From the NCBI GenBank assembly GCA_000165345.1, contig CM000431.1:256001-320000 (forward strand): DNA of 64,000 bases, written 5' to 3'. The notes under the pieces are model-generated. The model worked only from the letters and a program-made list of their open reading frames with translations, was not told the origin of the DNA and did no database searches. The position numbers and the translations under genes were made by a program. Below, piece by piece: positions 22,955-58,603 of this stretch (positions are counted from its first letter, which is position 1; each line of letters starts with the position of its first letter).

Positions 22955-23026
22955 TCCCACGTAGTCTAGGGGCTAGGATACTCGGCTTTCACCCGGGCGA
23001 CCCGGGTTCGATTCCCGGCGTGGGAG
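22955..23026 (+). tRNA. tRNA-Glu (anticodon UUC), 72 nt
   Basis: TCCCACG/CGTGGGA forms the acceptor stem. TAGTCTAGGGGCTAGGATA is the D arm. CTCGG-CTTTCAC-CCGGG forms the anticodon stem-loop with TTC at positions 34-36. GGGTTCGATTCCCGG is the T arm. The ORF track entry 22973..23212 (-) is the reverse complement of this RNA gene. Confidence 0.8.
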
Positions 23027-29973: not shown

Positions 29974-31590
29974 ATGGGAAATACTGCAGTAGGGAATACA
30001 GGAACAAGGCTTAGAGCACCAGTAGATGCCGTAGTAAACACTACTAATAAGAAAGCACCTGTAAGTGAAAAGCCATCTCAACCACAAATACCAAACAAAA
30101 CTTCTGATGTTAAAAAGGGAGGAACTATGGGAGGAGAGAGAGGAAGTGTAACAACTGGTATGTTTGTTCAGAGTGGTAGCGGGACCTTTGCAGAAAGGTA
30201 CAATATTGTATGTATGCTTGGCAAAGGTTCTTTTGGAGAAGTTTTGAAATGTAAAGACAGAATCACTCAACAAGAATATGCTGTCAAGGTTATTAACAAA
30301 GCTAGTGCAAAGAACAAGGATACTAGTACAATTTTGAGAGAAGTTGAGCTTTTAAAGAAGCTTGATCATCCAAATATTATGAAGCTATTCGAGATTTTGG
30401 AAGATTCATCTAGCTTCTACATTGTAGGAGAGCTTTACACAGGAGGAGAACTCTTTGATGAAATTATTAAGAGAAAAAGATTTAGTGAGCATGATGCTGC
30501 TAGAATTATTAAACAAGTATTTTCAGGAATTACTTACATGCATAAACATAACATTGTACATAGAGATTTAAAGCCAGAAAACATACTTTTAGAGTCTAAA
30601 GAAAAAGACTGTGATATTAAAATTATAGATTTTGGATTATCAACATGCTTCCAGCAAAATACCAAGATGAAGGATAGAATAGGAACAGCCTACTATATAG
30701 CTCCAGAAGTTTTGAGAGGTACTTATGATGAGAAATGTGATGTATGGTCAGCTGGAGTAATTCTATATATTCTCTTATCTGGAACACCTCCATTCTATGG
30801 AAAAAATGAATATGATATTTTGAAGAGAGTCGAGACAGGAAAGTATGCTTTTGACCTTCCACAATGGAGAACTATTTCTGATGATGCCAAGGATTTAATA
30901 AGAAAGATGTTAACTTTCCATCCTTCTTTGAGAATTACTGCAACACAATGTTTAGAACATCCATGGATTCAAAAATATTCAAGTGAGACTCCAACAATTA
31001 GTGACTTACCTTCATTAGAATCTGCTATGACAAATATTCGTCAATTCCAAGCAGAAAAGAAACTTGCTCAAGCAGCTCTACTATATATGGCAAGTAAATT
31101 GACAACATTGGACGAAACAAAGCAACTTACAGAGATCTTTAGGAAGTTAGATACTAATAATGATGGTATGTTAGATAGAGATGAGCTCGTTCGTGGTTAT
31201 CATGAATTTATGAGATTGAAAGGAGTAGATTCTAATTCTTTAATTCAGAATGAAGGATCAACAATAGAGGATCAAATTGATAGCTTAATGCCATTGTTAG
31301 ATATGGATGGATCGGGTTCTATAGAATATTCAGAATTTATTGCATCTGCAATAGATAGAACAATTTTGTTGAGTAGAGAAAGAATGGAAAGAGCTTTTAA
31401 AATGTTTGATAAAGATGGTTCTGGTAAGATTTCTACAAAGGAACTTTTTAAACTCTTTTCCCAGGCAGATAGCAGTATTCAGATGGAGGAGTTGGAATCA
31501 ATAATTGAACAAGTTGACAACAATAAGGATGGGGAAGTAGACTTTAATGAGTTTGTAGAAATGCTTCAGAATTTTGTCAGGAATGAATAA
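29974..31590 (+). CDS. CDPK1: Calcium-dependent protein kinase (CDPK1-type): N-terminal MGN myristoylation motif, Ser/Thr kinase domain, junction, four EF hands; 538 aa
   Basis: Kinase motifs [12 protein letters not shown]-like [18 protein letters not shown] and APE are present. After the kinase domain come the junction domain and four EF-hand loops ([52 protein letters not shown]). The sequence matches what I recall of Cryptosporidium CDPK1. Confidence 0.95.
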
Positions 31591-34982: not shown

Positions 34983-37103
34983 ATGGAGAATATTCCATTA
35001 CTTAAATCAGTTGAAAACAAGGATCCATCATTAAATTGGAATATTGATGTTTCAGCTGAGCTTGAAAAGTATTTATCAGCAATAGAGCTACTAGATGAGG
35101 ATATGAATTATAGTCAAAGTACAGAAGCTAATGGTTATGGATATAATAATGAAAATATTACTAGCAATAATGGGAGTTATATGCAAATGTTTAATTTTGT
35201 TGAAGCTGCTTTAATTATTCAAAACTCAACAAGCCTATATTCAAAGAAAATAGAGCATCTACATTCATTGGTATTTGACGCATTTCATTTATTATCTACA
35301 GGAAAATCTCAATTAAATGATGGAAAAATTGGACATGACGAACATACAAATTCTTCAAATCAGCTTGCAAATAAGAATAACATAGCAGAAAAAAATACAG
35401 CATTCTTAATGTCTAATATGGTTTCAGTACCTATCAATTTACTTCAGCCAGGGAGAAATATAAATTTGCAATTTGAACAGTTTGGAAATAACAGTTTGAA
35501 TGACGATATTTCAGCAAAGTATTCTTCTTACTCTTCTTATATAGGAGTTTCCAGTTTGGGAAACAGCATTTCTTTGCCTCAATATAGAATAGATACATCT
35601 TCAAATACCCTTTTTTTGGATGAAGCTGATTTGGGCTACTTTACTTCAAATGATTCAGTTGTAGAGCATGAATATTTGGGTGATATGTTTGCAGAAAATG
35701 GCATGGACTATGACAGTTTCCAGAAAGAAGATCAAGACCATGAACTACGGCAAAATGATGAAGTTTACGATGATGATATGGTAGTGAATGAAGATAATGG
35801 ACCTCTTGGGGCCGAGCTTGATGAGATTGAAATAGAAAGCCAGGATTACATTGAAAATTTTGACAATAAAGAAAACGAGTTATTAGATAATATGGATGAA
35901 AAGGGAAAGAAGGATGTTAAGAGCTCTGCTGGAGGACGTAGGAATAAAAACAAGGAAGACTATTGGGTGTTTATGGATGAACATATGAAACTTGGTAAAG
36001 ATAAACCATTGAAGCCTGGCAGAACTTATAAGATCCCATCTAGAAACTATACAATCTCTTTAGAAAACTTATCTCAAAAGGAAGATATATTGGATTTTAT
36101 TGATATTTATAGTTTAAGTTCCTATTTTATGGGTTTAACTAAAATTGAGGGGGAAAAATATAAGCTTGGTAGTCAAAAATTACCATTTTTCTCAGATTTG
36201 AAACCTCCAAAGCTAAGTGTTGAAAGACTTTTGACATTTGATGACCCTGATTATGACTATTTGAGATTATTAGAACCAGAACTTAACAAAAGTGCCTCCA
36301 GTTGGAAAAAATATCATTCCAAGGTATTCTTTGAAAGTATGGATAAGAAAAGGAGAGAATTATTAAATTCTGGTTCAGGCAATGATAATGACCAGGAAAC
36401 TTCAGAATTTAATGATCTTGGGATGGGCGAAATTTCTGAATACTATCTTGAACAAACTCAAGATGTTCTTTCGGATCCTGAATTGCCTTTGGATCCTATA
36501 GAAGATCATATCCAAGACGATGAAAACTTGATTGAAGGAACACAAAATCAAGAGGAGCAGATAATTAGTGACTCAAATTTGGTAGATATTATAGATTTTG
36601 AACAGAACTTGTCGGAGTTACACACCAGAATTAATACATGGACTGGCTATGTAGAGCCATTATTACAAGCTCAAAACTCTAGACCTGAATTCAACATTCA
36701 TGAAGAAGGGAAAATGATTATTGAAAGGATGAAAAAGTTCAACATTATGGAACAGCCCATAAGGTTTGAAGAAGTGACTAATGGGTTTTCTAAGTGGCAA
36801 GTATGCAGATCATTTCTGGCAACTTTAATGCTTTCAAATAATAGAGAAATAGATATTCTTCAGGAAAACCAAAACGCTATTGAAGAGGAAGCCGACTTCT
36901 TCTCCATAAAGTTGTTAGATGAGGATGAACAGAATCAAGCATTGAATACAAATATTAACAATACTGAGAAAGTTAGTGTAGTAAATCTTGATTTTCCAAA
37001 AAAGAAAAAGACAAAGAAAGACTTTGAAGAAGAAAGCAACGAATTGGAGAACAAATTAGATAAAGGTCAAAGAACATCTAGAAAAAGAGGGAACAAAACC
37101 TAA
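34983..37103 (+). CDS. NCAPH2: Condensin II kleisin subunit CAP-H2 (NCAPH2-like), 706 aa
   Basis: The N-terminal block DPSLNWNIDVSAELEKYLSAIE...MFNFVEAALIIQNSTSLYSKKIEHLHSLVFDAFHLLSTGK aligns with the conserved CAP-H2 N-terminus ([21 protein letters not shown]...[38 protein letters not shown], recalled from human NCAPH2). The C-terminal winged-helix segment VCRSFLATLMLSNNREIDILQ matches VCRSMLASLQLANDYTVEITQ. Confidence 0.8.
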   Translation: MENIPLLKSVENKDPSLNWNIDVSAELEKYLSAIELLDEDMNYSQSTEANGYGYNNENITSNNGSYMQMFNFVEAALIIQNSTSLYSKKIEHLHSLVFDAFHLLSTGKSQLNDGKIGHDEHTNSSNQLANKNNIAEKNTAFLMSNMVSVPINLLQPGRNINLQFEQFGNNSLNDDISAKYSSYSSYIGVSSLGNSISLPQYRIDTSSNTLFLDEADLGYFTSNDSVVEHEYLGDMFAENGMDYDSFQKEDQDHELRQNDEVYDDDMVVNEDNGPLGAELDEIEIESQDYIENFDNKENELLDNMDEKGKKDVKSSAGGRRNKNKEDYWVFMDEHMKLGKDKPLKPGRTYKIPSRNYTISLENLSQKEDILDFIDIYSLSSYFMGLTKIEGEKYKLGSQKLPFFSDLKPPKLSVERLLTFDDPDYDYLRLLEPELNKSASSWKKYHSKVFFESMDKKRRELLNSGSGNDNDQETSEFNDLGMGEISEYYLEQTQDVLSDPELPLDPIEDHIQDDENLIEGTQNQEEQIISDSNLVDIIDFEQNLSELHTRINTWTGYVEPLLQAQNSRPEFNIHEEGKMIIERMKKFNIMEQPIRFEEVTNGFSKWQVCRSFLATLMLSNNREIDILQENQNAIEEEADFFSIKLLDEDEQNQALNTNINNTEKVSVVNLDFPKKKKTKKDFEEESNELENKLDKGQRTSRKRGNKT

Positions 37104-43320: not shown

Positions 43321-46300
43321 CTATCTAGAACAAGATGTTAGTAATAATTCACCGGAAATGTCTTCATCAAGTTTGGACATGGTCTTCAAAGCATCATCGT
43401 TAGATATGAATTCTTCTTCCTTCACCATAGTATTAGTATGGTTAATTGAAATAAGAGGATACAAAGCGTTCATGATCGAGGAGTAAATAGTAGGATTATG
43501 TGACTCTTCTTGGCTAAGAAGTTGTTTCATATGCCTTCTTTCTTTAGGCTGAGAAAAGCAAGCAGGGCAATTTTCAGTTATGATTGGAAGTTGAGCTTTT
43601 AGAGCAAAGTTTGCAAGATCTTTTTCTCTACAATAAATCATTGGCCTTACTACTCGGACATTATATTCAGGAACAAAATAATTTGCTTTCATTGTATTTA
43701 GCTTTCCATTATTCATCAAAGAAAGCAAAAAGCTTTCACAAATATCATCTACATGTTGTCCTAAAGAAAGTACGTTATATCCATTTTTCTTCATACAAGA
43801 ATATAAAAGTCCCCTCTTCATTCTGGAACAGAAAGCGCAGTAAGATATTTTCTTTTGCTTTTCCTTGACTTTTGCAGCAATATCTACAATTGGGTATGAA
43901 ATAAAATGGTATTTTACTCCTAATGATTCCATATAAGGTATTAATTTTGATGCATCCATTTCGCTTGTTTGAGGATCTACAGTTGCTGCAGATACTTCAA
44001 ATTTTACTGGAGCTACTCTTTGCAAAAATAACAAAATGTGAAGCATTGTTAAGGAATCTTTTCCTCCAGATACTGCAACAAGTACTTTATCTCCTTCTCG
44101 TATCATATCAAATTTCTTTATTGCTTGTCCAACCTGTTTTCTAATTACTCCAAAGTCATTCGGCTTTGGAAATAATCTCACATTTTCTAATGCATTATTC
44201 TTCTTACAACTCTGCTTCTCAAAATCTTCTATTTCCTGCTTTTGTTTCTGCCTAGTTGATTCCTTGGTATTGCCGCCAAATTCAAAAGATTCAGAGTTTG
44301 CATGCATGCAATTTAATGTGGACAGTGTATCCGGTATAGAAATATTATTATTATTATTTTTACGTAATAAATGAATAATGTTTTGAATGTATTTTGGTGT
44401 AATGAACCATCTTAGATTTGATTCAGAAAGGAGTTCAAAGTCATTGATATTGGACAAATCACTTGAGTTTATTGAATTATTGAAGTGTTGGTTATTTTGA
44501 TATATGATTTCTTTAAATGCAGAATCGAGTTTGAATTCTTTTTCATAAGCTTGGTTTGAATGGCTTTTAGAGTTTACAATAATATCTTCTAAATTTCTCA
44601 CGATTTCATTAGCCATTTCAAAATTTCTTTCAAAGATTGGCTCACTATTTGACAATAATTTTGATTCATTATTTAAGGAACTTTTAGAGCCTAATTGGTC
44701 AAACTTATCAAAATAGAATTTTCCAATAGAATCTCCTAACCATCTTCTATGTATTTTATCTAGAGATTTCCATTCTGATCTATGCCTCCAAGTTCCTAGT
44801 GATTCTTCAAAAATATATAAAGGAAGGAATTTCCATCCATGTTTTGCAATCCAAATAACTGATTTTATTATATAATCCACGGTCTCTAAATTGTCGGACC
44901 AATGTAATGAAATTCTAGTGAATCCTGGTCTAACAGATTCTATACCTCTTACAACTAGATCTTGATAAAGCTGTCTAGTTTTTTCTTTGTCAAATCCCAG
45001 TAGCCTTTGTGAATAAGGGCCAGCACAAGAACAACCTCCTCTAGACTGTATGCCAAATAAATCATTCAATAAAGAGCATACAAAGTTATAGTGGAGATAA
45101 AAGTCATTTCCTTCATTATCTAAAATAGTAACTATCTTTGAGTTATTTTCAGAAACAAAGTCTAATTTCACTTGGTTATTTTCAAAATTAAATGGCTTAA
45201 TTAGAAATGAAATTATTGGAAGACTCGTAAGATATTGTCCATTCTTAAGTTCTTGATTTTCAATTATTAATTCTTCAAATCCTAAAATATCAATTTTTGG
45301 TCCATTTTTTTGATTAAATTGACTCCATTCAAAAATTACCCTTTCAAATAATACTCTTTCTTTCGATTGTTTAAGATATTGTGGAACTTTCATATCCAGT
45401 TTCATAACCATTCCTAGACGAGAAATTCCAAGAATATCTGAAGTCCCAGATTCCTCTCTTTCTTCCTTATTTAGTATATATTCGTGGTCATCCATGGACA
45501 CAAAAAAGACACTGTTTCCTCCAGGATCAGATGGTTTCTCAGATAATAGTAATTCTCTCTTAATAATTAAGACTCCAGGAGTAGATGGGCCTCCTAGAAG
45601 TTTATGGGAAGAAAATACACCGACATCTACATATCCTTGAGGATTTAAAGGTGGAGACATATTTGGTCTTGTATGAGGAGCCGTTGCAGCAAAGTCTACA
45701 ATAGTAATTCCTCCATACTGATGTGAAATTGTTGATATTTTTGTATAGTCATTAAGCCTTCCTGAAATATTAGATCCAGCAGAAATTAACAATATTGGAA
45801 TATTTAAAATATTGTTGTTTTTTAACTTGATGAGCTCATCCTTTAGGTTAGGGATATCCACTTCTCCTCTTTTGTTTAAATTCAGATATACTAAACTAAA
45901 TGATAACTTGTACTTTAAATCATTATGTAAGGCTTTAAAACCTTGCGAATATCTCTTAGAATATTCAATAAAAGGTAAGAATAAAGAATGATGAGATGAA
46001 GGATCAACCATAAAAGTGATTCTATAATGATCCATATTGTCTTCATTCTGTGTAGAATCAGATTTACTTTGGAAATCCTTTTCTCTGTGATTTTTATTAA
46101 AATGTCTTCTAAATGCAGCTTCAGTATCATACTGAGTTTCACAACTGACACATTTAAATGACTTCCATCTATCCTGAATAACATTAACAGAAATATCTTT
46201 AAATAAATTCTGGTTAATATAACTTGTTTTAAACTTTTTAATAATGCTAATCCAGTAAGATGCATCCATTATTTTAAGAAACTTGGAAACTGCTCCTGTT

Positions 46301-46638
46301 GAACCTTGTCCAACGAATATGATAGCATCCTCAGGATTTCCACCAATAAACTGCCTTACAGATTCTCTTGCCTCATAAATAAACCAAGTGCTTTGTCTTG
46401 CATTATTAGATGCAATACTATGAGTATTACCATAATATGGAGCAACATCTTCTTTCAATGAATCTTCAATAAATCTCAAACTTCTTCCTGATGCAGTCCA
46501 ATCAGAATATACCATATTTCTAAGACCAAATGGAGTCTTTATTGGACAAAGTTCCCCAATGATGTTTTCCCTAATAAACTCGCAGTACTTTTCAAATTCA
46601 TCGTTTTGTTGATCAACCTGCATAAAGTGATTCTCCAT
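43321..46638 (-). CDS. Fusion protein, 1105 aa: N-terminal class-V aminotransferase / group-II cysteine desulfurase-like domain (NifS/SufS/CsdA-like) joined by a low-complexity linker to a C-terminal TtcA-type PP-loop ATPase (tRNA thiolation) domain
   Basis: The N-terminal domain has the PLP-fold motifs: DWTASGRSLRFIED...YYGNTHS...ARESVRQFIGGNPEDAIIFVGQGSTGAV; the PLP-lysine block VGVFSSHKLLGGPSTPGVLIIK; and the desulfurase active-site loop QSRGGCSCAGPY (compare SufS RxGHHCAxP). The C-terminal domain, near 43321..44200, has the PP-loop VLVAVSGGKDSLTML and the TtcA-specific Cys motifs SYCAFCSRMKRGLLY and PIITENCPACFSQPKERRHMKQLL (compare TtcA CSLCSRLRRGxLY and PIIPCNLCGSQENLQR). It is a single uninterrupted ORF on the minus strand. 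Confidence 0.75.
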   Translation of the reverse strand: MENHFMQVDQQNDEFEKYCEFIRENIIGELCPIKTPFGLRNMVYSDWTASGRSLRFIEDSLKEDVAPYYGNTHSIASNNARQSTWFIYEARESVRQFIGGNPEDAIIFVGQGSTGAVSKFLKIMDASYWISIIKKFKTSYINQNLFKDISVNVIQDRWKSFKCVSCETQYDTEAAFRRHFNKNHREKDFQSKSDSTQNEDNMDHYRITFMVDPSSHHSLFLPFIEYSKRYSQGFKALHNDLKYKLSFSLVYLNLNKRGEVDIPNLKDELIKLKNNNILNIPILLISAGSNISGRLNDYTKISTISHQYGGITIVDFAATAPHTRPNMSPPLNPQGYVDVGVFSSHKLLGGPSTPGVLIIKRELLLSEKPSDPGGNSVFFVSMDDHEYILNKEEREESGTSDILGISRLGMVMKLDMKVPQYLKQSKERVLFERVIFEWSQFNQKNGPKIDILGFEELIIENQELKNGQYLTSLPIISFLIKPFNFENNQVKLDFVSENNSKIVTILDNEGNDFYLHYNFVCSLLNDLFGIQSRGGCSCAGPYSQRLLGFDKEKTRQLYQDLVVRGIESVRPGFTRISLHWSDNLETVDYIIKSVIWIAKHGWKFLPLYIFEESLGTWRHRSEWKSLDKIHRRWLGDSIGKFYFDKFDQLGSKSSLNNESKLLSNSEPIFERNFEMANEIVRNLEDIIVNSKSHSNQAYEKEFKLDSAFKEIIYQNNQHFNNSINSSDLSNINDFELLSESNLRWFITPKYIQNIIHLLRKNNNNNISIPDTLSTLNCMHANSESFEFGGNTKESTRQKQKQEIEDFEKQSCKKNNALENVRLFPKPNDFGVIRKQVGQAIKKFDMIREGDKVLVAVSGGKDSLTMLHILLFLQRVAPVKFEVSAATVDPQTSEMDASKLIPYMESLGVKYHFISYPIVDIAAKVKEKQKKISYCAFCSRMKRGLLYSCMKKNGYNVLSLGQHVDDICESFLLSLMNNGKLNTMKANYFVPEYNVRVVRPMIYCREKDLANFALKAQLPIITENCPACFSQPKERRHMKQLLSQEESHNPTIYSSIMNALYPLISINHTNTMVKEEEFISNDDALKTMSKLDEDISGELLLTSCSR

Positions 46639-46856: not shown

Positions 46857-46990
46857 TAGATTTGTATTATTTTATTAAATCAAGTATAGATAAATTGATT
46901 GGAGTATAAAATTGGTTAATAATAAGGAGGGTTCAAAGGAAAATAGTAGTATAACAGGTGATTGTAGTTGTATGTGCTAAATAGTTGAAT

Positions 46991-48388
46991 ATGTCAGAGG
47001 AATTGAAGTTTAATGGTCAGGATGCACCAAATGAGGAGATCCACGAAAAGAAGGATGAAGACCAAGTGGGGATGACTTTCAGTGAGAGAGAGGCTAATAT
47101 GAATCAAACAGCGGAGTGTGAAGAATATTTGGAGGATGAGGAGTATTACGAGGAGGATGAAGATGAACTGAATGCAAGTTTAGACCCGGAATTATTATTA
47201 GAGGAGGGTAGAAAGTTAAGAAAAAAGAAGAAGTTTGATGAAGCCATTGTAAAGTTATATTGGGCCATGACTAATAGGATGAATCTTTTGAACATAACTG
47301 AAGAAAGTGGGATAGACCCAAGACTTTCAGAATACTACTTGATTTATGCGGATGTATTATTTGAGAAAGAGGAGAATTCAACCAATTTTTTCTCAAAGAG
47401 AAATGAGCAGGATACAATGAATTCATTTTCATCATCTTCATCATCTTCATCATCTTCGTCATCTTCGTCATCTTCGTCATCTTCGTCATCTTCGTCATCT
47501 TCGTCATCATCTTCGTCATCATCTTCGTCATCATCGTCTTCATCTTCAGACCCAACGTTTATAGAGTCAACCGTAATGAATATGGCAAACAACAGCGTAG
47601 CCGAGGCTACAGACGAGGAAGTAGCATGGGAGAACTTTGAAGCTGCAAAGTTAGCTTATATTAAGTTGATATATTTGAAGAAGAGGGGAGATTACGATGC
47701 ATATTGCCAAGGAATAATTCCTGAGTATTTAGCTAACTTGTTTTCATCTAATGAGTTGAACGATGGAAAGTTTGAGGAGCTTTTGAGAGAAGTTTGTAGT
47801 TGCAATTCCGAGGAAAGATCGAGAATTCCAGATAAAGATATCACAGATTTATCGTATGTTTTTATAAGACTAGGAGACATTTTACAGCTAGCTGAAAAGT
47901 ATTACGAAGCATCAATAGAATACAAAAATTCTCTATTTATCTTGGAAACATTCAAGTTGCCAGAAGATACGACTGAATCTTCATTAATATGTTTGGCACA
48001 AAGTACTTTATTTTCGGGCAAAATTAAAGACTCAAAATATTTATTCGAGAGAGCTTTAAATTTAGTTAGAAATCACTTTGAAGGGAAGAACGGAATGACT
48101 GCGCCTACAGATCCCCAACAAATTGAAGCTTATAAACTAACCTTGGAAGATTTACAACTTACTTTGGATGATATTAATCGTAAATTGGCTGTGAACCAAG
48201 AGGATCAGAAACCTGCTACTGCTATTCCTAAATTAGAAGAGATAAAGAAAGAAAATTCTTTTAATAAAGCTCAACTTCCTGAGAATGAACCTGTTAAAGT
48301 TATTAATACGGTTGATATAAATGGAAGCCCTTGTGAAAATACTGTAGATAATAAGAAGAAAAGAAGAATTGATTTATCTAAGGTATAA
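46991..48388 (+). CDS. Poly-serine-containing protein with TPR-like helices, possibly a NASP/Hif1/Sim3-type (SHNi-TPR) histone chaperone; 465 aa from the first ATG
   Basis: An acidic N-terminus, then TPR-like segments (AIVKLYWAMTNRMNLL..., EYYLIYADVLFEKEE..., AWENFEAAKLAYIKLIYL, LSYVFIRLGDILQLAEKYYEASIEYKNSLFI), are interrupted by a tract of about 42 Ser. The C-terminal NLS-like KKKRRIDLSK is present. The track ORF starts at a TTG (46985). The first ATG is 46991. The family assignment is tentative. Confidence 0.5.
   Translation: MSEELKFNGQDAPNEEIHEKKDEDQVGMTFSEREANMNQTAECEEYLEDEEYYEEDEDELNASLDPELLLEEGRKLRKKKKFDEAIVKLYWAMTNRMNLLNITEESGIDPRLSEYYLIYADVLFEKEENSTNFFSKRNEQDTMNSFSSSSSSSSSSSSSSSSSSSSSSSSSSSSSSSSSSSSSSSSDPTFIESTVMNMANNSVAEATDEEVAWENFEAAKLAYIKLIYLKKRGDYDAYCQGIIPEYLANLFSSNELNDGKFEELLREVCSCNSEERSRIPDKDITDLSYVFIRLGDILQLAEKYYEASIEYKNSLFILETFKLPEDTTESSLICLAQSTLFSGKIKDSKYLFERALNLVRNHFEGKNGMTAPTDPQQIEAYKLTLEDLQLTLDDINRKLAVNQEDQKPATAIPKLEEIKKENSFNKAQLPENEPVKVINTVDINGSPCENTVDNKKKRRIDLSKV
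47428..47548 (+). repeat. Coding nonanucleotide repeat (TCATCTTCG/TCATCTTCA)n of about 120 bp, encoding poly-Ser
   Basis: Seen directly as tcatcttcatcatcttcatcatcttcgtcatcttcgtcatcttcg... The antisense strand gives the spurious poly-Asp/Glu track ORF 47344..47592. Confidence 0.85.
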
Positions 48389-50078: not shown

Positions 50079-53000
50079 ATGAGGAGGTTTGATGTGGTTC
50101 CAATAACCTCTGAATTTAGCGAGAACCCCAATATAACAATAACCTCATTATGTTATGTGCCAGTTATTGGTTACATTTATGCAGGGACTAACTTTGGAGA
50201 TATTTTACTTTATAAATATGAGGATTTTCATGGAATTCAAAAGAACGATGGAAGCGATGTATTAGGATTCGATTTAAACAAGGATAGAATAGTTGGAAAA
50301 GAAAGATGCGTTCGGATTAAGAATATTTCTCAGAAATGCAAAAGAATAGATAAGATATTTCCCATTATATGCTACGATACAGTGGTAAATGATGAAATGG
50401 AAAATAGAGTACTTATTGGGGGTGTAATTTTATGCATATGCGATGGAAACTTATTGTATTTGGATTTTAGATTAATAGGAAAAATTAATTTGCTTTGTAA
50501 AGGAGTTTCTTCAGTATCAATTTGGAAAGACAGCTTTAATATTAACACTTTTCAAACTAAATTTTGTATTGCAACAAAAAAAAAGATCATTTTTTATAAT
50601 ACATGTCTTTTAGGCGATTTATTGGATATACAAGATATTTTGGAATATGATAATGAGGTTAATAATAATCCTTCAATTCATAATAAAAAGAGATCAAGTC
50701 TTGAAAGCCGATCCTCAGTCGTCAAAAATGGAAAAGAATCCACAATTCAGAATGAAGACGCCTCCAAGGGTTATACCTCTGGAGTAAATTCTTGGTTTGG
50801 ATTTTCTACAAACAATTCCCATTCAAATAATAATAGCAATGGGAACAATAATAATGTTGATAATTCTCATAAAACTTCAGCAAAAGATGAAGTGGGTTAC
50901 AATGAAGATTATTTATCAAGCATAGAATTTATTAAAGTTGATGAAATCCAGATCCCAAGCAGACTTGCTTCATTTACTGAAAGTATATGTAATATAGAAT
51001 GGTGTGATAACTGGGTTTGCTTTGTTATTGCAAACACTTACTTTATTATGAACATTGACGATCAGAGTATAAATGATATATTGAATTTGGACCAGTTGGG
51101 AAACAATTTTCAGCCCCAAATAATTATTCTACCAGAACAAGAGTTTATGTTGACTTGTCAGGATAATTTAGGAGCATTCTTTAGCTTTAGTACTTTGGAG
51201 CCATCTCCAAAATCAATGATTCAGTGGCCATCTGAAGGTCTTACAGGGGTAGTACTTTCATCTCCTTATCTTCTTGGAGGAACTAAGAGTGGGATTATTC
51301 AAATCTATTCACTGGCAAATTATGATGCCAACCCATTGATTAAAGAAAGTAAGACTAGTAATAATAGTTCAAGCCTTAGATCTACAAATGAATTATCATC
51401 AGTTGGAGGTAACAACAGAGGATTTTCGAATAATAATAGTCACAACAGCGTCCAAACATTGCAACTTGATGATGAAATTACCTGTATTTCAACTGGAGGA
51501 ACTTGTGAAGGCATATTTTTCGGTCCCTCATCAGTCATAACAGCTCCTTTGGGCCCTATGGTAGTGGTTTCAACCAAAACAAAGATATACGCTCTTACTC
51601 CAATTCCAATTGAGGAGTCCATCTTTGGACTTGTGAATAGAAGTCAAGGAAAGCAAGCATTAAATGTGTTGAGAACTTATTGTAATAGTAATGATTTATT
51701 ATACAATAGTTTATTATATAAGACTCAATGTTTAATTGGGTGGTTTGAGTTCAAGAATTTACAATTTGAAAAGGCTTTTCAATCTTTCAAACAGGCACAT
51801 ATTGATCCAAGAGTTTTAATAATATTATTCTGGAAGGATCTTATTCCAATAGAGTGGGACCTCAAGTACTCAAATGGTTCATTGTCAGATTTGTATGAAT
51901 ATGCAAAGCTACCATGGATGAATTCAAAAGGAAATCTTTCTGAAGATTTATCACCAGATGTTAAGTTTCACGAATCCTTGCTAAAGTCTGTCTTAAGGAA
52001 GAAGGGTCTTAACAAGCTGCCTCCAAGTATTGACTTATTTGTTCGGAGCTTATTACTGAATAAATCTGAATTCAATAGTAATTTACAGATAAACATAGAA
52101 GGAGATGTGGAAAAGATTGACGAGTATATTTATTTTGCCAATAAGTCATTTAAGATGTTTCTATTGTCTGAGAGAGGAAAATATACTTCTAACATAGAGA
52201 ATTCGAAAGATAATTTTCACCAAATTGGAAAGCAAAGCGAAATTCAGAAAAGTTATTCAACTGGAAAGATTATGGACATTGCTATTATTAAGTTAATAAT
52301 TAATGAATTCAATTGCAAGTACAAGAGAAGCCAAGATATTTCCTTGAGTAATAGAATCATTTTAAATTTACTAGAAATAGATTCTGAACAAAAGTTTAAT
52401 GATAAGGGCAATAAAGATTATTATTTAAAACAAGAAGAGATAATGGAAAGCGAGATTGAAGATGAAGATGAGTTAATGAACAAAAAAGTTTTTAGGAATG
52501 TGTTTACAGAATTCACTGTTGATGAGTACGAAGAATTTCTTTTAAGTAGTGGAAGATACGATATATTGGCAATTCTACTAGCTTATAATTCTTCTTACTT
52601 GAGATCTCTAGAGATTTTAGAAAATATGGTAAACTCTTCAGACAAGAGTTCTTTGGAGGCATATTCAAGCAATAATTCGAATTTTATTAATACTTATTTG
52701 ATAATTTTTCAAGTATTATTGCATTTATGTAACTCAGAGATTACTCCAATACATATTCAAGCTAACTTATTAAAACGATATTCAAGATTTATTCTTGATA
52801 AGTTTGACATTTGTCCAATAGATCGTTTATTTACTTTAAAACCCGTTGATAAGTTTCCACTTACAATAGATGAGATACTTGGATTATTTAATTTATTACC
52901 AACAATGGCTTCAAATCGCCTAACTAAATCTTATTTGGAGACGATAATAGCAACTCAAGGTGATAATATAGAATTGAAACATAAAATAAATTTGATTGAG

Positions 53001-54209
53001 ATTTATATTAATGATATATCAACAAGTATTGAAACTGGCATTCATAATTTAATTGGAGATGGATCAAATTATATTAATCTTTTTAATGATAATTTTAGGC
53101 CTTCCAAGCTGGCCATTATGCTTGAAGATCTAGAAGATTTTGATACTGAGATTCTAGTAAAACACATTTCTTTTAACAGTCATTTTAAATATAAAGTTCA
53201 TGATAACATTATTATTGAGTACATAATAATTTTATTCAGAAGTAACAGACATAATCAAGCTTTAAATTATATAATTAATGTTTTAGAGAATATTGAATTG
53301 GCAGAAATTTATACTTTGGCTCAGATTTATCATAATAAATATGCTATTCAATCCGATAATATGAATTTAAAAGTTAATGTAATAGAAAAATCAGAATTTG
53401 AGATATCCTTTCAAAATTACCAGCAAAACAATTTAATTAAAGATAGTAAACAAGCATATCGTAAATTAAAATTTTTTACAGAATTTAAACTTTGGAAGAT
53501 TTTCAAGGACGAGTACTCCAACATTTCGAGTCCAATACAACAAAACAATACGGGAGATTTAGAAATGAATTCTTGGCTTGAAATTCTGGATATTTCTCAT
53601 AATGAGTTATCACTAATTTCAGAAGAATATAATAAAGTTAAAGATATTAACGAGCAGAGTAATTATATGAAATTGATAAATAAGTTAACATCTTTAAATG
53701 GAGATAGGAATCTTCAAAACATTTATAGTTATGGTTCAATGGATTCTAATGGAGAAATAATAGCTTTAGTGAAAATCTTGATAGAGTCTTGGAGGTCTTG
53801 TATACAAGACAGGTCTATCGAAAAGGCAGAAAAACTTCAAAATTCAACAATTAATATCTTAAACAAATATTCATTTCATCCCGATATATCCATTGGAAAT
53901 ATTCTTCAAGTTATTCCAAAAGAATGGCCTTTATTAAAGATGATAAATTTCTTAAAGAATAGTCTTGTATCATCAATACATAATCAAACAAGTAAGTCAA
54001 TTTCAACAAATTTATCTGCAATTTCCTTTCTAAGATTATACGAAAAATGGTCAAATACTCGATCTAACCATGTCACAATTACTCAAGATATGATTTGCCA
54101 TGTGTGCTCACTAAAATTGGGTAATAAACCCTGTGCTCTATATCCAAACGGTTCATGCGTTCATACTCATTGTTTATCTAACGAGTATTATTCATTCAAC
54201 TCTTATTAA
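50079..54209 (+). CDS. VPS39: Vps39/Vam6-like (HOPS/CORVET-type) tethering subunit, 1376 aa
   Basis: A large protein whose C-terminus CHVCSLKLGNKPCALYPNGSCVHTHCLSNE closely matches the conserved C-terminal zinc-finger-like tail of Vps39/TGFBRAP1 (C.VC.K.LGNS.F..YPNG.VVH..C). The N-terminal region is beta-propeller/CNH-like. Confidence 0.65.
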   Translation: MRRFDVVPITSEFSENPNITITSLCYVPVIGYIYAGTNFGDILLYKYEDFHGIQKNDGSDVLGFDLNKDRIVGKERCVRIKNISQKCKRIDKIFPIICYDTVVNDEMENRVLIGGVILCICDGNLLYLDFRLIGKINLLCKGVSSVSIWKDSFNINTFQTKFCIATKKKIIFYNTCLLGDLLDIQDILEYDNEVNNNPSIHNKKRSSLESRSSVVKNGKESTIQNEDASKGYTSGVNSWFGFSTNNSHSNNNSNGNNNNVDNSHKTSAKDEVGYNEDYLSSIEFIKVDEIQIPSRLASFTESICNIEWCDNWVCFVIANTYFIMNIDDQSINDILNLDQLGNNFQPQIIILPEQEFMLTCQDNLGAFFSFSTLEPSPKSMIQWPSEGLTGVVLSSPYLLGGTKSGIIQIYSLANYDANPLIKESKTSNNSSSLRSTNELSSVGGNNRGFSNNNSHNSVQTLQLDDEITCISTGGTCEGIFFGPSSVITAPLGPMVVVSTKTKIYALTPIPIEESIFGLVNRSQGKQALNVLRTYCNSNDLLYNSLLYKTQCLIGWFEFKNLQFEKAFQSFKQAHIDPRVLIILFWKDLIPIEWDLKYSNGSLSDLYEYAKLPWMNSKGNLSEDLSPDVKFHESLLKSVLRKKGLNKLPPSIDLFVRSLLLNKSEFNSNLQINIEGDVEKIDEYIYFANKSFKMFLLSERGKYTSNIENSKDNFHQIGKQSEIQKSYSTGKIMDIAIIKLIINEFNCKYKRSQDISLSNRIILNLLEIDSEQKFNDKGNKDYYLKQEEIMESEIEDEDELMNKKVFRNVFTEFTVDEYEEFLLSSGRYDILAILLAYNSSYLRSLEILENMVNSSDKSSLEAYSSNNSNFINTYLIIFQVLLHLCNSEITPIHIQANLLKRYSRFILDKFDICPIDRLFTLKPVDKFPLTIDEILGLFNLLPTMASNRLTKSYLETIIATQGDNIELKHKINLIEIYINDISTSIETGIHNLIGDGSNYINLFNDNFRPSKLAIMLEDLEDFDTEILVKHISFNSHFKYKVHDNIIIEYIIILFRSNRHNQALNYIINVLENIELAEIYTLAQIYHNKYAIQSDNMNLKVNVIEKSEFEISFQNYQQNNLIKDSKQAYRKLKFFTEFKLWKIFKDEYSNISSPIQQNNTGDLEMNSWLEILDISHNELSLISEEYNKVKDINEQSNYMKLINKLTSLNGDRNLQNIYSYGSMDSNGEIIALVKILIESWRSCIQDRSIEKAEKLQNSTINILNKYSFHPDISIGNILQVIPKEWPLLKMINFLKNSLVSSIHNQTSKSISTNLSAISFLRLYEKWSNTRSNHVTITQDMICHVCSLKLGNKPCALYPNGSCVHTHCLSNEYYSFNSY

Positions 54210-57232: not shown

Positions 57233-58603
57233 TTAATTATTGTAGGAAATAGGTACAACTAATAGTCCATTTTTTGACTCTTTAATAGAATTCCATCTGC
57301 CAAGTCTATGTTCTTGTCCAATAGCAGCAACAATAAGCTTATCAGAAACAGAAATATCATTAACAAATCCAGAGATTTTGATAGAATTTATAAGAGAGAT
57401 ATTATTATTTTGATTTGACCATTTCCAAGCTTTAATTTCTTGATCATCACTACCAGTGAAAAATAAATCAGTAAAAGGAATACTTTTAATAGAATAAATA
57501 CCTCCTTTATGTAGATCATTACTAGTAAATAAAGGCTTCTTTTTAAATTGTGACCATATATGTATAGTACCATCTTGTTGACCAGTTATATAATTAACAT
57601 TATTTAAACAAGATACAGAATCAATAGGAGATTCAATATTTTTGGATAAATCATTGTTGTTATTATTATTACTTGGATAAAATATTAAATGTGAATCAGC
57701 AGATAATTTCCATAACCTAGATGTATTATCTTCAGAACCAGTAAAAGGTCTATCTTTCAGAATTATATCACAAGATGTAATTTTATTAGTATGGCCATAA
57801 TAAGTATTCATATGTGATCTTGATTTTAAACTCCAAACTTTGAGAGATTTATCAAAAGAAACTGAAATAATTTGATCAATATCAGAATTTGGTTCAGAAA
57901 CTATACCAGTAATTGTATTAGTATGACCATGAAATTTTTCTATACATTTTTGTACTCTATGATCCCATATTCTTATAACTTTATCTTCACCACCACTACA
58001 AATAAGATTAGTTTCTTTATGATAACATATTGTTTTAACTTGTTCAAAATGTCCACCACATTCAAAATCTTTTCTACTACCTGGAAAAATAATTTTTTTA
58101 CCAGTTTCTAAATCCCATTTAATTATAGCACAATCTTTACCACCAGTATATGCAGTTCTTCCATCTTTATCTAAAGTTACACATGTTGGGCTTAATTTGT
58201 GACCTTTGTAAAATGTAGAGTCACTTGTAATATTAAAACTATCAGCAATATCTCTTTGTGAGATTTTACCTTCTAATATATTTAAACTTTTTTTAATATC
58301 ATCATCATCTAAAGCATCAATTTTTTTTAAATATTTTTTTGCTAATGAAACTCTTCTTTCATCATCATTTTCAAAAAAAGTATCTTCTTCATCATCATCA
58401 TCTTCTTCTTCTCCATTTTCATAATCAGATTCTACATTTGAACCTAAAGTTCTTCCAATAAAATGTGAATTTTTATGATCTTGGTAATCCACACTTTTTT
58501 TATTATTTAAAAATGATTCATCATCTGAAGATGATACAATTTCTTCATTTTCATTTTTTTTCTTTCCTTGATTTTTTTTAATTTGTTGAAATTTTCTCTT
58601 CAT
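57233..58603 (-). CDS. RRP9: U3 snoRNP WD40 protein RRP9/U3-55K, 456 aa
   Basis: RRVSLAKKYLKKI, GHKLSPTCVTLDKDGRTAYTGGKDCAIIKWDLETGKKI and the C-terminal VAAIGQEHRLGRWNSIKESKNGLLVVPI align with the conserved RRP9 blocks (LRLAKLYLEQL; GHQLSITCLVVTPDDSAIFSAAKDCSIIKWSVESGRKL; VAGVGQEHRLGRWWRIKEARNSVCIIPL, recalled from human RRP9). Confidence 0.88.
   Translation of the reverse strand: MKRKFQQIKKNQGKKKNENEEIVSSSDDESFLNNKKSVDYQDHKNSHFIGRTLGSNVESDYENGEEEDDDDEEDTFFENDDERRVSLAKKYLKKIDALDDDDIKKSLNILEGKISQRDIADSFNITSDSTFYKGHKLSPTCVTLDKDGRTAYTGGKDCAIIKWDLETGKKIIFPGSRKDFECGGHFEQVKTICYHKETNLICSGGEDKVIRIWDHRVQKCIEKFHGHTNTITGIVSEPNSDIDQIISVSFDKSLKVWSLKSRSHMNTYYGHTNKITSCDIILKDRPFTGSEDNTSRLWKLSADSHLIFYPSNNNNNNDLSKNIESPIDSVSCLNNVNYITGQQDGTIHIWSQFKKKPLFTSNDLHKGGIYSIKSIPFTDLFFTGSDDQEIKAWKWSNQNNNISLINSIKISGFVNDISVSDKLIVAAIGQEHRLGRWNSIKESKNGLLVVPISYNN

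Follow-up and report, generated by a model that had tools for sequence, protein, structure and literature searches.

A single-exon gene of Cryptosporidium parvum encodes one polypeptide of 1105 residues in which a SufS/CsdA-like PLP domain precedes a TtcA-type PP-loop domain. Both folds are present, their catalytic residues are conserved, the order of the domains is fixed and the architecture is widely distributed among eukaryotes. We consider it rather probable that the protein is a bifunctional enzyme, probably cytosolic and possibly also nuclear, that mobilizes the sulfur of cysteine into tRNA as 2-thiocytidine at position 32 (s2C32). The kind of enzyme is not new, being already present in the literature (Toxoplasma, a sea slug) and in database annotation. 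The initial annotation of this DNA had not recognized the architecture as a described one, but it was preceded by TgTtcA (PMC9420914, 2022), by a preprint on the 'IscS-TtcA' of Aplysia (bioRxiv 10.64898/2026.09.27.754811) and by databases that label the C. hominis and Symbiodinium copies 'TtcA'.

The gene occupies positions 43321–46638 on the minus strand of the window, the 64,000-nucleotide stretch analyzed here; all features described below lie on the same strand. The ORF listing holds exactly one ORF at this place, which starts with ATG and runs uninterrupted through 1105 codons to the stop. No earlier in-frame start codon was found between the upstream stop and this ATG. The translation is identical to EAZ51426.1 / QOY42452.1, and several C. 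parvum assemblies give the same 1105-residue protein (four accessions, five contigs). In a homologue search, the fused protein was present in every Cryptosporidium species matched, with colinear orthologues of 1104–1230 residues in C. hominis, C. tyzzeri, C. meleagridis, C. ubiquitum, C. canis, C. felis, C. ryanae, C. xiaoi, and C. andersoni. The architecture also recurs in ORFs from transcript data: in Selenidium, in a diatom, and in further transcriptome assemblies. These observations all speak against an artefact of assembly, sequencing or gene modeling that merged two genes, an explanation for which we found no support and which we regard as extremely improbable. Independent assemblies agree on the protein, all Cryptosporidium species matched have it, and other taxa have homologues as single transcripts; as far as sequence data can exclude an artefact, the fusion is genuine. 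The one-chain fusion proposed in the initial annotation is thus borne out, as is every structural point of that proposal that we tested: the desulfurase-like domain with its SufS-type cysteine loop, the TtcA-type PP-loop and both cysteine clusters. All five motifs that it cited are present, with coordinates confirmed by translation, and Pfam returns both expected domains.

Neighboring genes in the window are ordinary eukaryotic genes, encoding a CDPK, condensin CAP-H2, an SHNi-TPR protein, a Vps39-like protein, and a WD40 protein, and none of them has a link to sulfur metabolism. Literature searches under the candidate identifiers cgd3_980-1020 and CPATCC_001089 returned nothing on the C. parvum gene.

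The N-terminal domain (residues 8–640; positions 44719–46617) has the class-V aminotransferase fold of type II desulfurases and is matched by Aminotran_5 with an E-value of 4.7e-27. Conservation of its residues was counted over 80 fused proteins from a family gathered with the C. parvum protein as query. The PLP Schiff-base lysine is K346 in SSHK (residues 343–346; 45601–45612), aligned with E. coli SufS K226 and invariant (80/80). H216-H217 (45988–45993), conserved in 78 of the 80 proteins, align with SufS H123-H124, the PLP-stacking and acid–base histidines. In VDFAAT (314–319; 45682–45699), D315 occupies the position of SufS D200, the ligand of the PLP ring nitrogen, and R575 of TRISL (574–578; 44905–44919; 80/80) aligns with R379, which binds the substrate carboxylate. 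RGGCSCAGP (533–541; 45016–45042) places R533 at SufS R359 and C538 at the catalytic C364, the persulfide carrier. The SufS active-site set His123/His124, Asp200, Arg359, and Arg379 is therefore matched by H216/H217, D315, R533, and R575, each conserved in 78–80 of 80 proteins.

The loop follows the type II consensus RxGHHCA (R533-G-G-C-S-C538-A versus R359-T-G-H-H-C364-A in SufS), with its two histidines replaced by Cys and by Ser/Ala. The first replacement creates an extra invariant cysteine, C536, two residues ahead of the catalytic one and aligned with SufS H362; R533, C536, and C538 are each found in 80/80 fused proteins. On the basis of this alignment, we assign the catalytic cysteine to C538, the second of the two cysteines in RGGCxCAGP, an assignment added by the present work. 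Other features set the domain apart from SufS and CsdA. The equivalent of SufS Gln203, which forms a hydrogen bond to PLP O3', is A318, and this position is Ala in 42, Thr in 24, Ser in 8, and Gly in 3 of the 80 proteins. There are insertions at 130–200 and 440–515, and a conserved C-terminal extension of ~60 residues (about 584–640) that is absent from SufS. The score against the NCBIfam SufS subfamily TIGR01979 is 75.6 bits, against a cut-off of 475, and the domain falls in a separate 'RGGCxCAG' subfamily, which also includes stand-alone proteins of bacteria (~500 aa) and of eukaryotes. No characterized member of this subfamily was found in the literature.

These residues lead us to predict cysteine desulfurase activity for the N-terminal domain. 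It is very unlikely that the domain is instead another PLP enzyme, such as a cysteine/cystine C–S lyase or a selenocysteine lyase, that forms no persulfide. C-DES-type lyases have no catalytic cysteine at the SufS C364 position, whereas here the cysteine lies exactly at this position and is invariant in the 80 fused proteins and in all 37 family members examined, and the equivalents of R359, R379, K226, and the His-His pair are likewise conserved.

Within the PLP domain, residues 156–184 (46087–46173) form an insertion with the C2H2 zinc-finger pattern C163-x2-C166-x12-H179-x4-H184, identified by direct reading and modeled by AF2 as a beta-hairpin and a helix. The finger is present in 27–30 of 119 fused proteins, which form one clade in a neighbor-joining tree, and is absent from stand-alone relatives. 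In the sequences gathered, it is limited to an alveolate-type clade of the fused family, an observation added by this work. A small set in which 15/15 proteins carried the finger had made it a candidate hallmark of all fused proteins, a view rejected on the counts from the wider set.

Between the two domains lies a linker of residues 641–825 (44164–44718), mostly of low confidence in the AF2 model. Asn and Ser make up 27% of it, compared with 13–16% in the two domains, and its identity between Cryptosporidium and dinoflagellate-type homologues is 9–14%; no DNA tandem repeat was detected in it. Its description as a low-complexity, Asn/Ser-rich segment in the initial annotation holds for the composition, but the linker is not featureless. 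It contains LRWFITP (742–748; 44395–44415), conserved in the fused proteins as LxWFxxP (W744 in 76/80, F745 in 71/80, P748 in 73/80) and followed by a helix at 748–762, with pLDDT values of 77–83 at the motif and helix. In the alignments, this conserved linker motif is a further addition of the present work. At the other end of the protein, residues 1069–1105 (43324–43434) form an acidic, low-confidence tail, in which no hydrophobic anchor was found.

The poorly conserved, predictedly disordered linker is compatible with the polypeptide being merely a precursor, cleaved in the linker into separate enzymes that then operate like the bacterial IscS and TtcA. Such cleavage may underlie the several smaller bands seen besides the full-length one for C-terminally tagged TgTtcA (PMC9420914), and was also raised by the authors of the Aplysia study (bioRxiv 10.64898/2026.09.27.754811). 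Against this stand the band of the expected full-length size in Toxoplasma (PMC9420914), the linker motif conserved in 76/80 proteins, and the persistence of the fusion in distant eukaryotes (at least 119 clusters), which would be difficult to account for were the covalent linkage of no importance. We hold the precursor explanation to be distinctly unlikely.

The C-terminal domain (residues 826–1068; 43435–44163) is a PP-loop ATP pyrophosphatase domain of the TtcA type, matched by ATP_bind_3 in Pfam (E 6.5e-16) and by TtcA in NCBIfam (E 1.3e-63 over residues 832–1065), with 37% identity to E. coli TtcA. Its SGGKDS motif (857–862; 44053–44070), the PP-loop for ATP binding and adenylation, aligns with E. 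coli SGGKDS and is found in 80/80 fused proteins. In CAFCSRMKRG (934–943; 43810–43839; 78/80), C934-A-F-C937 aligns with C122-S-L-C125 of E. coli TtcA, whose C122 and C125 are two of the [4Fe-4S] ligands (PMC4081106). In NCPACFSQP (1023–1031; 43546–43572), C1024-P-A-C1027 aligns with E. coli C210-N-L-C213; judging by the order of cysteines, C1024 and C1027 would correspond to the 'Cys219/Cys222' of PMC4081106. C1027, about 90 residues downstream of the first CxxC, is the predicted third cluster ligand.

Among the NCBIfam models, TtcA scores best by far, with 215.1 bits versus 64 for TtuA and 32 for NcsA, although the TtcA equivalog cut-off (NF007972) is 272 bits. Scores below the TtcA (215 vs 272) and SufS (76 vs 475) cut-offs make the protein a strict equivalog of neither family, and by its best family match the C-terminal domain is classed here as a 'TtcA-like domain'. 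Proteins of the TtuA/Ncs6 group carry terminal zinc fingers, while two central CxxC motifs are the TtcA pattern. By direct reading, no CxxC zinc fingers of the TtuA/Ncs6 kind are present in residues 800–856 and 1032–1105.

By analogy, the C. parvum domain may bind a [4Fe-4S] cluster and form s2C32, as supported indirectly by the detection of s2C32 in Aplysia tRNA, where it was linked to 'IscS-TtcA' (bioRxiv 10.64898/2026.09.27.754811). The same ATP- and Fe-S-dependent chemistry could instead act on another nucleoside, for instance a uridine or another position, or on an RNA other than tRNA. Compatible with a different target are the sub-cut-off score and the modest identity to E. coli TtcA, as well as the alveolate C2H2 finger and the Toxoplasma signal, since TgTtcA was located in the nucleus as well as the cytosol (PMC9420914) and both could point to other RNA substrates. 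In addition, the Aplysia substrate tRNA-Lys(UUU) is outside the E. coli TtcA substrates (bioRxiv 10.64898/2026.09.27.754811). The preference for TtcA over TtuA and NcsA, the central CxxC motifs and lack of terminal fingers, and the finding of s2C at position 32 in the single eukaryote studied with mass spectrometry (bioRxiv 10.64898/2026.09.27.754811) argue the other way. A different target is unlikely.

The fused architecture was found in at least 119 distinct clusters, and in 119/119 proteins carrying both motifs the PLP domain comes first, then the variable linker, then the TtcA domain. Family members range from about 0.9 to 1.7 kaa, a layout that the C. parvum protein fits. All fused clusters of identifiable source are eukaryotic, several of them transcript-derived, with taxonomy taken from 20 cluster look-ups together with the TgTtcA and Aplysia papers. 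Profile searches of word-indexed candidates from a named protein database yielded further stand-alone PLP relatives but no additional named fused protein. Many eukaryotes and bacteria have a paralogue of this PLP family that stands alone. The gene neighborhoods of three such bacterial relatives contain no PP-loop or TtcA neighbor, and therefore offer no independent Rosetta-stone support for the pairing; one of the three adjoins a DsrC/TusE-like gene.

The stand-alone paralogues indicate that the PLP domain can work without TtcA, and the neighboring DsrC/TusE-type sulfur carrier would also suit a desulfurase half that is no donor of the tRNA sulfur. Such a half would feed the building or repair of the protein's own [4Fe-4S] cluster, or a general cytosolic persulfide pool, with the fusion securing co-expression only. 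TtcA activity is absolutely dependent on its oxygen-labile cluster, but E. coli TtcA takes sulfur in vitro from a cysteine/desulfurase system (PMC4081106), and the strict domain order and the cysteine invariant in 80/80 proteins fit a dedicated donor–acceptor pair. The non-donor role, which is not mutually exclusive with the donor role, seems to us improbable.

For the bifunctional thiolase that we favor, we propose the following mechanism. The N-terminal domain would bind L-cysteine on K346-PLP and strip its sulfur, giving alanine and a persulfide on C538, in the manner of type II desulfurases (SufS/CsdA). The TtcA domain would carry a [4Fe-4S] cluster on C934, C937, and C1027, with one iron left free. 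Tethered by the flexible linker, donor and acceptor could meet within one chain or across a homodimer, and no separate IscS or carrier would be needed to bring the C538 sulfur to the free iron, which it would reach directly or by way of C1024. [quoted passage not shown] To our knowledge, no SufE/SufU/CsdE partner of the fused family is known. Type II desulfurases are usually slow unless a dedicated acceptor is present, which counts against a self-sufficient enzyme, and no such acceptor was identified for the C. parvum desulfurase half. The sub-cut-off NCBIfam scores, the replacement of Q203, the smaller C-terminal bands of TgTtcA and the bacterial neighborhoods lacking a PP-loop also weigh against our best explanation.

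More tentatively, we regard it as possible, rather than probable, that Cryptosporidium and many other eukaryotes possess a self-contained cytosolic s2C32 thiolase with its own type II-like donor and, in alveolates, a finger module. The sulfur would then come from a second, cytosolic and organelle-independent source instead of the mitosomal/mitochondrial Nfs1 pathway, and the alveolate finger would be an added RNA-binding or docking module. s2C32 was long thought absent from eukaryotes. If the predicted activity is real, Cryptosporidium has a desulfurase outside its mitosome that is wired directly to a tRNA-modifying enzyme. This would bear on the sulfur source for eukaryotic cytosolic thiolation, and on whether eukaryotes widely carry s2C32, as opposed to its being a bacterial and archaeal modification. 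The enzyme would also be a parasite-selective target, provided that mammals lack the gene. The residue assignments amount to an immediate mutagenesis plan (K346, C538, C536, C934, C937, C1027, and LxWFxxP). Because published work and database annotations already contain the architecture, the practical value is limited.

TgTtcA (TGGT1_294380), assigned by its authors to the TtcA/TtuA family, resembles the C. parvum protein in that its C-terminal PP-loop domain is preceded by stretches of class-V aminotransferase; donor–acceptor logic, catalytic residues and function are outside the scope of that study (PMC9420914). The coccidian proteins are about 1650 residues or longer, with large low-complexity insertions, whereas the intron-less C. 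parvum version has only 1105 and is probably the family member best suited to expression and biochemical work. Protein P0099 of the closely related coccidian Besnoitia can be aligned with that of C. parvum along both domains, with 55% identity in the TtcA part, and shares the C2H2 finger, RGGCxCA loop and WF motif. By their identical domain layouts, and for TGGT1_294380 also through this Besnoitia protein, TGGT1_294380 and LOC101861551, the Aplysia gene, are putative orthologues. The initial annotation had set the fusion against the Urm1/Ncs6 route; this contrast was misplaced, as that route makes s2U34 and the fusion most likely s2C32, and Ncs6 coexists with TgTtcA in Toxoplasma.

The Aplysia 'IscS-TtcA', described together with fusions of other animals, has 1177 residues, in which a TtcA-like domain comes after one of the CsdA/COG0520 type (bioRxiv 10.64898/2026.09.27.754811). 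Although an animal protein, it shares with that of C. parvum the PLP lysine, the PP-loop, the C-CxxC-CxxC pattern and a long linker of low conservation. With type I IscS as the reference, its authors were unable to locate the catalytic cysteine (bioRxiv 10.64898/2026.09.27.754811); since the domain is SufS/CsdA-like, the name 'IscS' is misleading for fusions of this type.

The E. coli pair IscS and TtcA has the same predicted chemistry, with a PLP-derived persulfide, a [4Fe-4S] cluster on three cysteines, a PP-loop and s2C32 as the product (Bouvier et al. 2014, PMC4081106). C. parvum retains the PP-loop of E. coli TtcA and its cluster-ligand cysteines. In E. coli, however, donor and acceptor are two proteins from unlinked genes and the donor is the type I IscS, whereas C. 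parvum has a type II-like donor in the same chain. In Bacillus subtilis, YrvO and MnmA form an 'abbreviated' s2U34 pathway in which a desulfurase is paired directly with its user, without a multi-protein relay; they are encoded by adjacent genes, not as one chain, and differ from the C. parvum fusion in partners and product, that of MnmA being s2U34. The eukaryotic MOCOS/ABA3 likewise joins a NifS-like domain to an acceptor domain, here MOSC, to sulfurate the molybdenum cofactor.

The window is AT-rich, with a G+C content of ~30%. Our ORF listing agrees exactly with the initial annotation in placing an uninterrupted ORF of 1105 codons, with an ATG start, at window positions 43321-46638 of the minus strand, and all motifs quoted there were found, with their coordinates checked by translation. 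The expected pair of Pfam domains is also recovered, Aminotran_5 in two stretches (E 4.7e-27) and the PP-loop domain ATP_bind_3 at residues 851-1020 (E 6.5e-16). The top NCBIfam match is the SufS subfamily model for the N-terminal part and the TtcA equivalog for the C-terminal part (215 bits, E 1.3e-63; residues 832-1065, model positions 24-254 of 295). The linker, residues 641-825, is rich in Asn and Ser as described, these two residues making up 27% of it versus 13-16% of both domains; its DNA was checked for tandem repeats and none was found.

The fused protein is 100% identical to a hypothetical protein of C. parvum Iowa II, and four accessions and five contigs share the sequence. Colinear orthologues of 1104-1230 residues are present in C. 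hominis, C. tyzzeri, C. meleagridis, C. ubiquitum, C. canis, C. felis, C. ryanae, C. xiaoi, and C. andersoni. Together, the identical records and these orthologues exclude a frameshift in the linker or an assembly artefact as far as sequence data allow, and it is extremely improbable that the long ORF is anything but a true fusion.

Exhaustive scanning of 1.84 billion cluster representatives with HMMER yielded 924 matches at E <1e-30. Both the PP-loop and the Cys-loop motif of the desulfurase are present in 119 of the 169 proteins examined, always in the order desulfurase to TtcA; with clustering at 50% identity, these represent at least 119 fused clusters. Every such member with an identifiable source is eukaryotic, including Vitrella, Chromera (two copies), Amoebophrya, Rhodelphis, Perkinsus, Symbiodinium, the archigregarine Selenidium, the coccidian Besnoitia, and the diatom Thalassionema. 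Two further members come from metagenome contigs of eukaryotic character, one of them 1.38 Mb long and the other with FAN1 and RCC1 as neighbours. Several homologues are complete transcriptome-derived ORFs, showing that one mRNA encodes the whole chain in their source organisms. Neighbour joining of 80 full-length fused sequences placed Cryptosporidium and the other alveolates in one clade, which fits vertical inheritance and not recent transfer. We conclude that this is a real, well-conserved Rosetta-stone fusion.

A single fused copy was obtained from each Cryptosporidium species matched; the two Chromera velia genes, P0059 and P0069, are paralogous and encode 1413 and 1105 residues. Eight of the 119 fused homologues, of dinoflagellate type or unidentified, carry at the C-terminus a hydrophobic stretch followed by basic residues (among them P0012, P0013, P0016, P0017, P0126, and P0139). 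Such ends, absent from the Cryptosporidium proteins, resemble tail anchors, suggesting that some relatives may be membrane-tethered.

The AlphaFold2 model, calculated from a 37-sequence alignment, has a pTM of 0.66 and a mean pLDDT of 77.8. Values are mostly 85-95 at residues ~8-620 and 826-1068, and confidence is low at residues 641-657, 692-737, 766-820, and 1070-1105. The N-terminal half superposes in Foldseek on whole SufS/CsdA-type desulfurases (E 4e-21, target-normalised TM 0.80-0.87). Profile-profile alignment with E. coli K-12 SufS, the sequence of which was taken from the annotated genome and its residue numbering checked, covers 375 columns and SufS residues 22-401 with a probability of 99.8. 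It places H216/H217 on SufS H123/H124, N290 on N175, D315 on D200, K346 on the PLP lysine K226, R533 on R359, C538 on the persulfide-forming C364, and R575 on R379. A separate profile-to-PDB alignment sets the family sequence RGGCaCAGPy on RSGHHCAQPL of a SufS structure. Only one active-site residue of SufS is lost, Q203, which is replaced by Ala, Thr, or Ser in the fused family. Judged from these alignments, the donor domain is SufS/CsdA-like (type II) and not IscS-like, and in the invariant RGGCxCAGP loop the second Cys is its predicted catalytic cysteine; PLP chemistry of another kind is very improbable.

The score against the SufS subfamily model, 76 bits, is far under the cut-off of 475 bits (NCBIfam), and the domain falls in a separate RGGCxCAG subfamily, which includes stand-alone members as well, both bacterial (~500 residues) and longer eukaryotic ones (Balamuthia, mango). 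For these reasons we describe the domain as probably working like a type II desulfurase and do not file it as a SufS. It differs from SufS by insertions at residues ~130-200 and ~440-515 and by a conserved extension of ~60 residues (584-640). On a metagenome contig, the gene for P0047, a bacterial stand-alone RGGCxCAG PLP protein, is directly followed by a DsrC/TusE-family gene, and a second class-V aminotransferase lies on the opposite strand. This neighbourhood may be a sign that a sulfur relay is supplied by the stand-alone enzymes, too.

The first insertion, midway through the PLP domain, holds a classical C2H2 finger, C163-x2-C166-x12-H179-x4-H184 (residues 156-184, window 46087-46173, minus strand), modelled by AlphaFold2 as a β-hairpin and a helix. 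Only 27-30 of the 119 fused proteins have it; they make up essentially one clade of alveolate type, comprising Cryptosporidium, Besnoitia, Selenidium, Chromera, Vitrella, Perkinsus, Amoebophrya, and Symbiodinium, and the finger is absent from Rhodelphis and all stand-alone relatives. By its distribution, the insertion is a marker of the alveolate clade; tRNA binding and domain docking are possible roles. The linker contains a conserved element, L742-x-W744-F745-x-x-P748 (residues 742-748, window 44395-44415, minus strand). This LxWFxxP motif is kept in 76 of the 80 diverse fused proteins and is directly followed by a helix modelled with moderate confidence. At least one stand-alone eukaryotic relative, P0021 from Balamuthia, has the motif as well, close to its C-terminus.

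Residues 831-1070 share 37% identity with E. coli K-12 TtcA over 234 aligned positions (E 1e-48). The SGGKDS PP-loops coincide, and C934/C937 and C1024/C1027 correspond to C122/C125 and C210/C213. E. coli TtcA requires a [4Fe-4S] cluster on three cysteines, numbered 122, 125, and 222, and with TtcA present, s2C32 is made in vitro from cysteine with IscS, ATP, and DTT, no more being needed (Bouvier et al., PMC4081106). The cysteines numbered in that 2014 paper are Cys46, 122, 125, 200, 219, and 222; those of RefSeq E. coli TtcA (L002:7014-7949) are at 45, 122, 125, 191, 210, 213, 255, and 290. The published numbering thus disagrees with the 311-residue sequence for the C-terminal cysteines. Its Cys219/Cys222 can only be the RefSeq C210/C213 pair, which makes C1027 the predicted third ligand.

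Residue conservation was counted in the 80 diverse full-length fused proteins. K346, R533, C536, C538, R575, and every PP-loop residue are invariant (80/80), D315 is kept in 79, and H216/H217 and C934/C937 in 78; C1024 and C1027 are present in 73 and 71, the remainder being mostly gaps. This pattern suggests that both halves have been kept enzymatically active. The identity of Cryptosporidium to dinoflagellate-type proteins is 53-58% in the TtcA domain, 35-42% in the PLP domain, and 9-14% in the linker.

The most economical reading, which we favour with moderate confidence, is a bifunctional s2C32 enzyme. The PLP domain would convert L-cysteine to alanine, leaving a persulfide on C538, and the PP-loop of the tethered TtcA domain would adenylate C32 of tRNA substrates. 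The free iron in the [4Fe-4S] cluster would accept the sulfur, after which AMP would be displaced to give s2C32. The chemistry of the SufS half is established for the bacterial enzyme. The same holds for the TtcA half (PMC4081106). For the C. parvum fused protein, the presence of the cluster, the direct transfer of sulfur, the tRNA position modified, and the cellular location are all inferred. The Aplysia system supports s2C32 as the product: tRNA-Lys(UUU) carries s2C32 there, and a genome search with E. coli TtcA retrieved the fusion (10.64898/2026.09.27.754811). An RNA target other than the proposed one is rather unlikely, and it is quite unlikely that the desulfurase mostly supplies cluster assembly or other pathways.

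The Toxoplasma protein of the same architecture, TgTtcA, was endogenously tagged and found in the cytosol and nucleus (PMC9420914). This location, the net charge of -4 over the first 40 residues, and the helix at residues 8-24, already part of the fold in the AlphaFold2 model, support a cytosolic location in C. parvum. The tagged protein gave the expected full-length band and smaller bands (PMC9420914). The latter are compatible with post-translational cleavage of the chain into two proteins; however, the full-length band is also there, and we consider cleavage improbable. We regard the fusion as a good candidate for a cytosolic, self-sufficient s2C32 synthase.

The sole tRNA gene in the window, tRNA-Glu(UUC) at 22955-23026 (plus strand), has C at position 32 and U at position 34; it is a classical s2U34 substrate that could in principle carry s2C32 too. 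A 9-bp tandem repeat, TCATCTTCA, is present in 14 copies at 47423-47548 within the plus-strand ORF 46985-48388, where it encodes a poly-serine run of ~40 residues in a neighbouring gene weakly matching SHNi-TPR (NASP-like). The repeat could serve as a length-polymorphic marker. A calcium-dependent protein kinase of 538 residues (Pkinase and four EF hands; 29974-31590, plus strand) is presumably CpCDPK1, a known drug target, as suggested by its size and position on chromosome 3. Other genes encode a condensin II CAP-H2 homologue (34983-37103), a Vps39-like protein (50079-54209), and a WD40 protein (57233-58603).

The architecture, initially taken to be undescribed, is preceded by papers on Toxoplasma and Aplysia and by database labels. 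Copies from C. hominis and Symbiodinium are labelled "tRNA 2-thiocytidine biosynthesis protein TtcA" or "Aminotransferase class-V". Yang et al. 2022 (PMC9420914) listed TGGT1_294380 as having a PP-loop domain and two stretches of Aminotran_5, named it TgTtcA, and suggested a role in s2C32. Both domains of the C. parvum protein align with the Besnoitia protein, the TtcA part at 55% identity, and the finger, Cys loop, and WF motif are common to the two; by way of the Besnoitia protein, the C. parvum gene is probably orthologous to TGGT1_294380. A bioRxiv preprint of 2026-09-28 describes an Aplysia "IscS-TtcA" fusion of 1177 residues, reports its occurrence across 28 species of mollusc and also, from data not shown, in birds and insects, and gives the first mass-spectrometric evidence of eukaryotic s2C, with the catalytic cysteine left unidentified (10.64898/2026.09.27.754811). 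Our literature search found no paper on the Cryptosporidium fused gene. Fusions of this kind were already on record in the literature, and the architecture ranges over at least alveolates, a diatom, Rhodelphis, and animals. New here are the assignment of a type II donor with its candidate catalytic cysteine, the alveolate C2H2 marker, the LxWFxxP linker motif, and the taxonomic span of the fusion in constant domain order.
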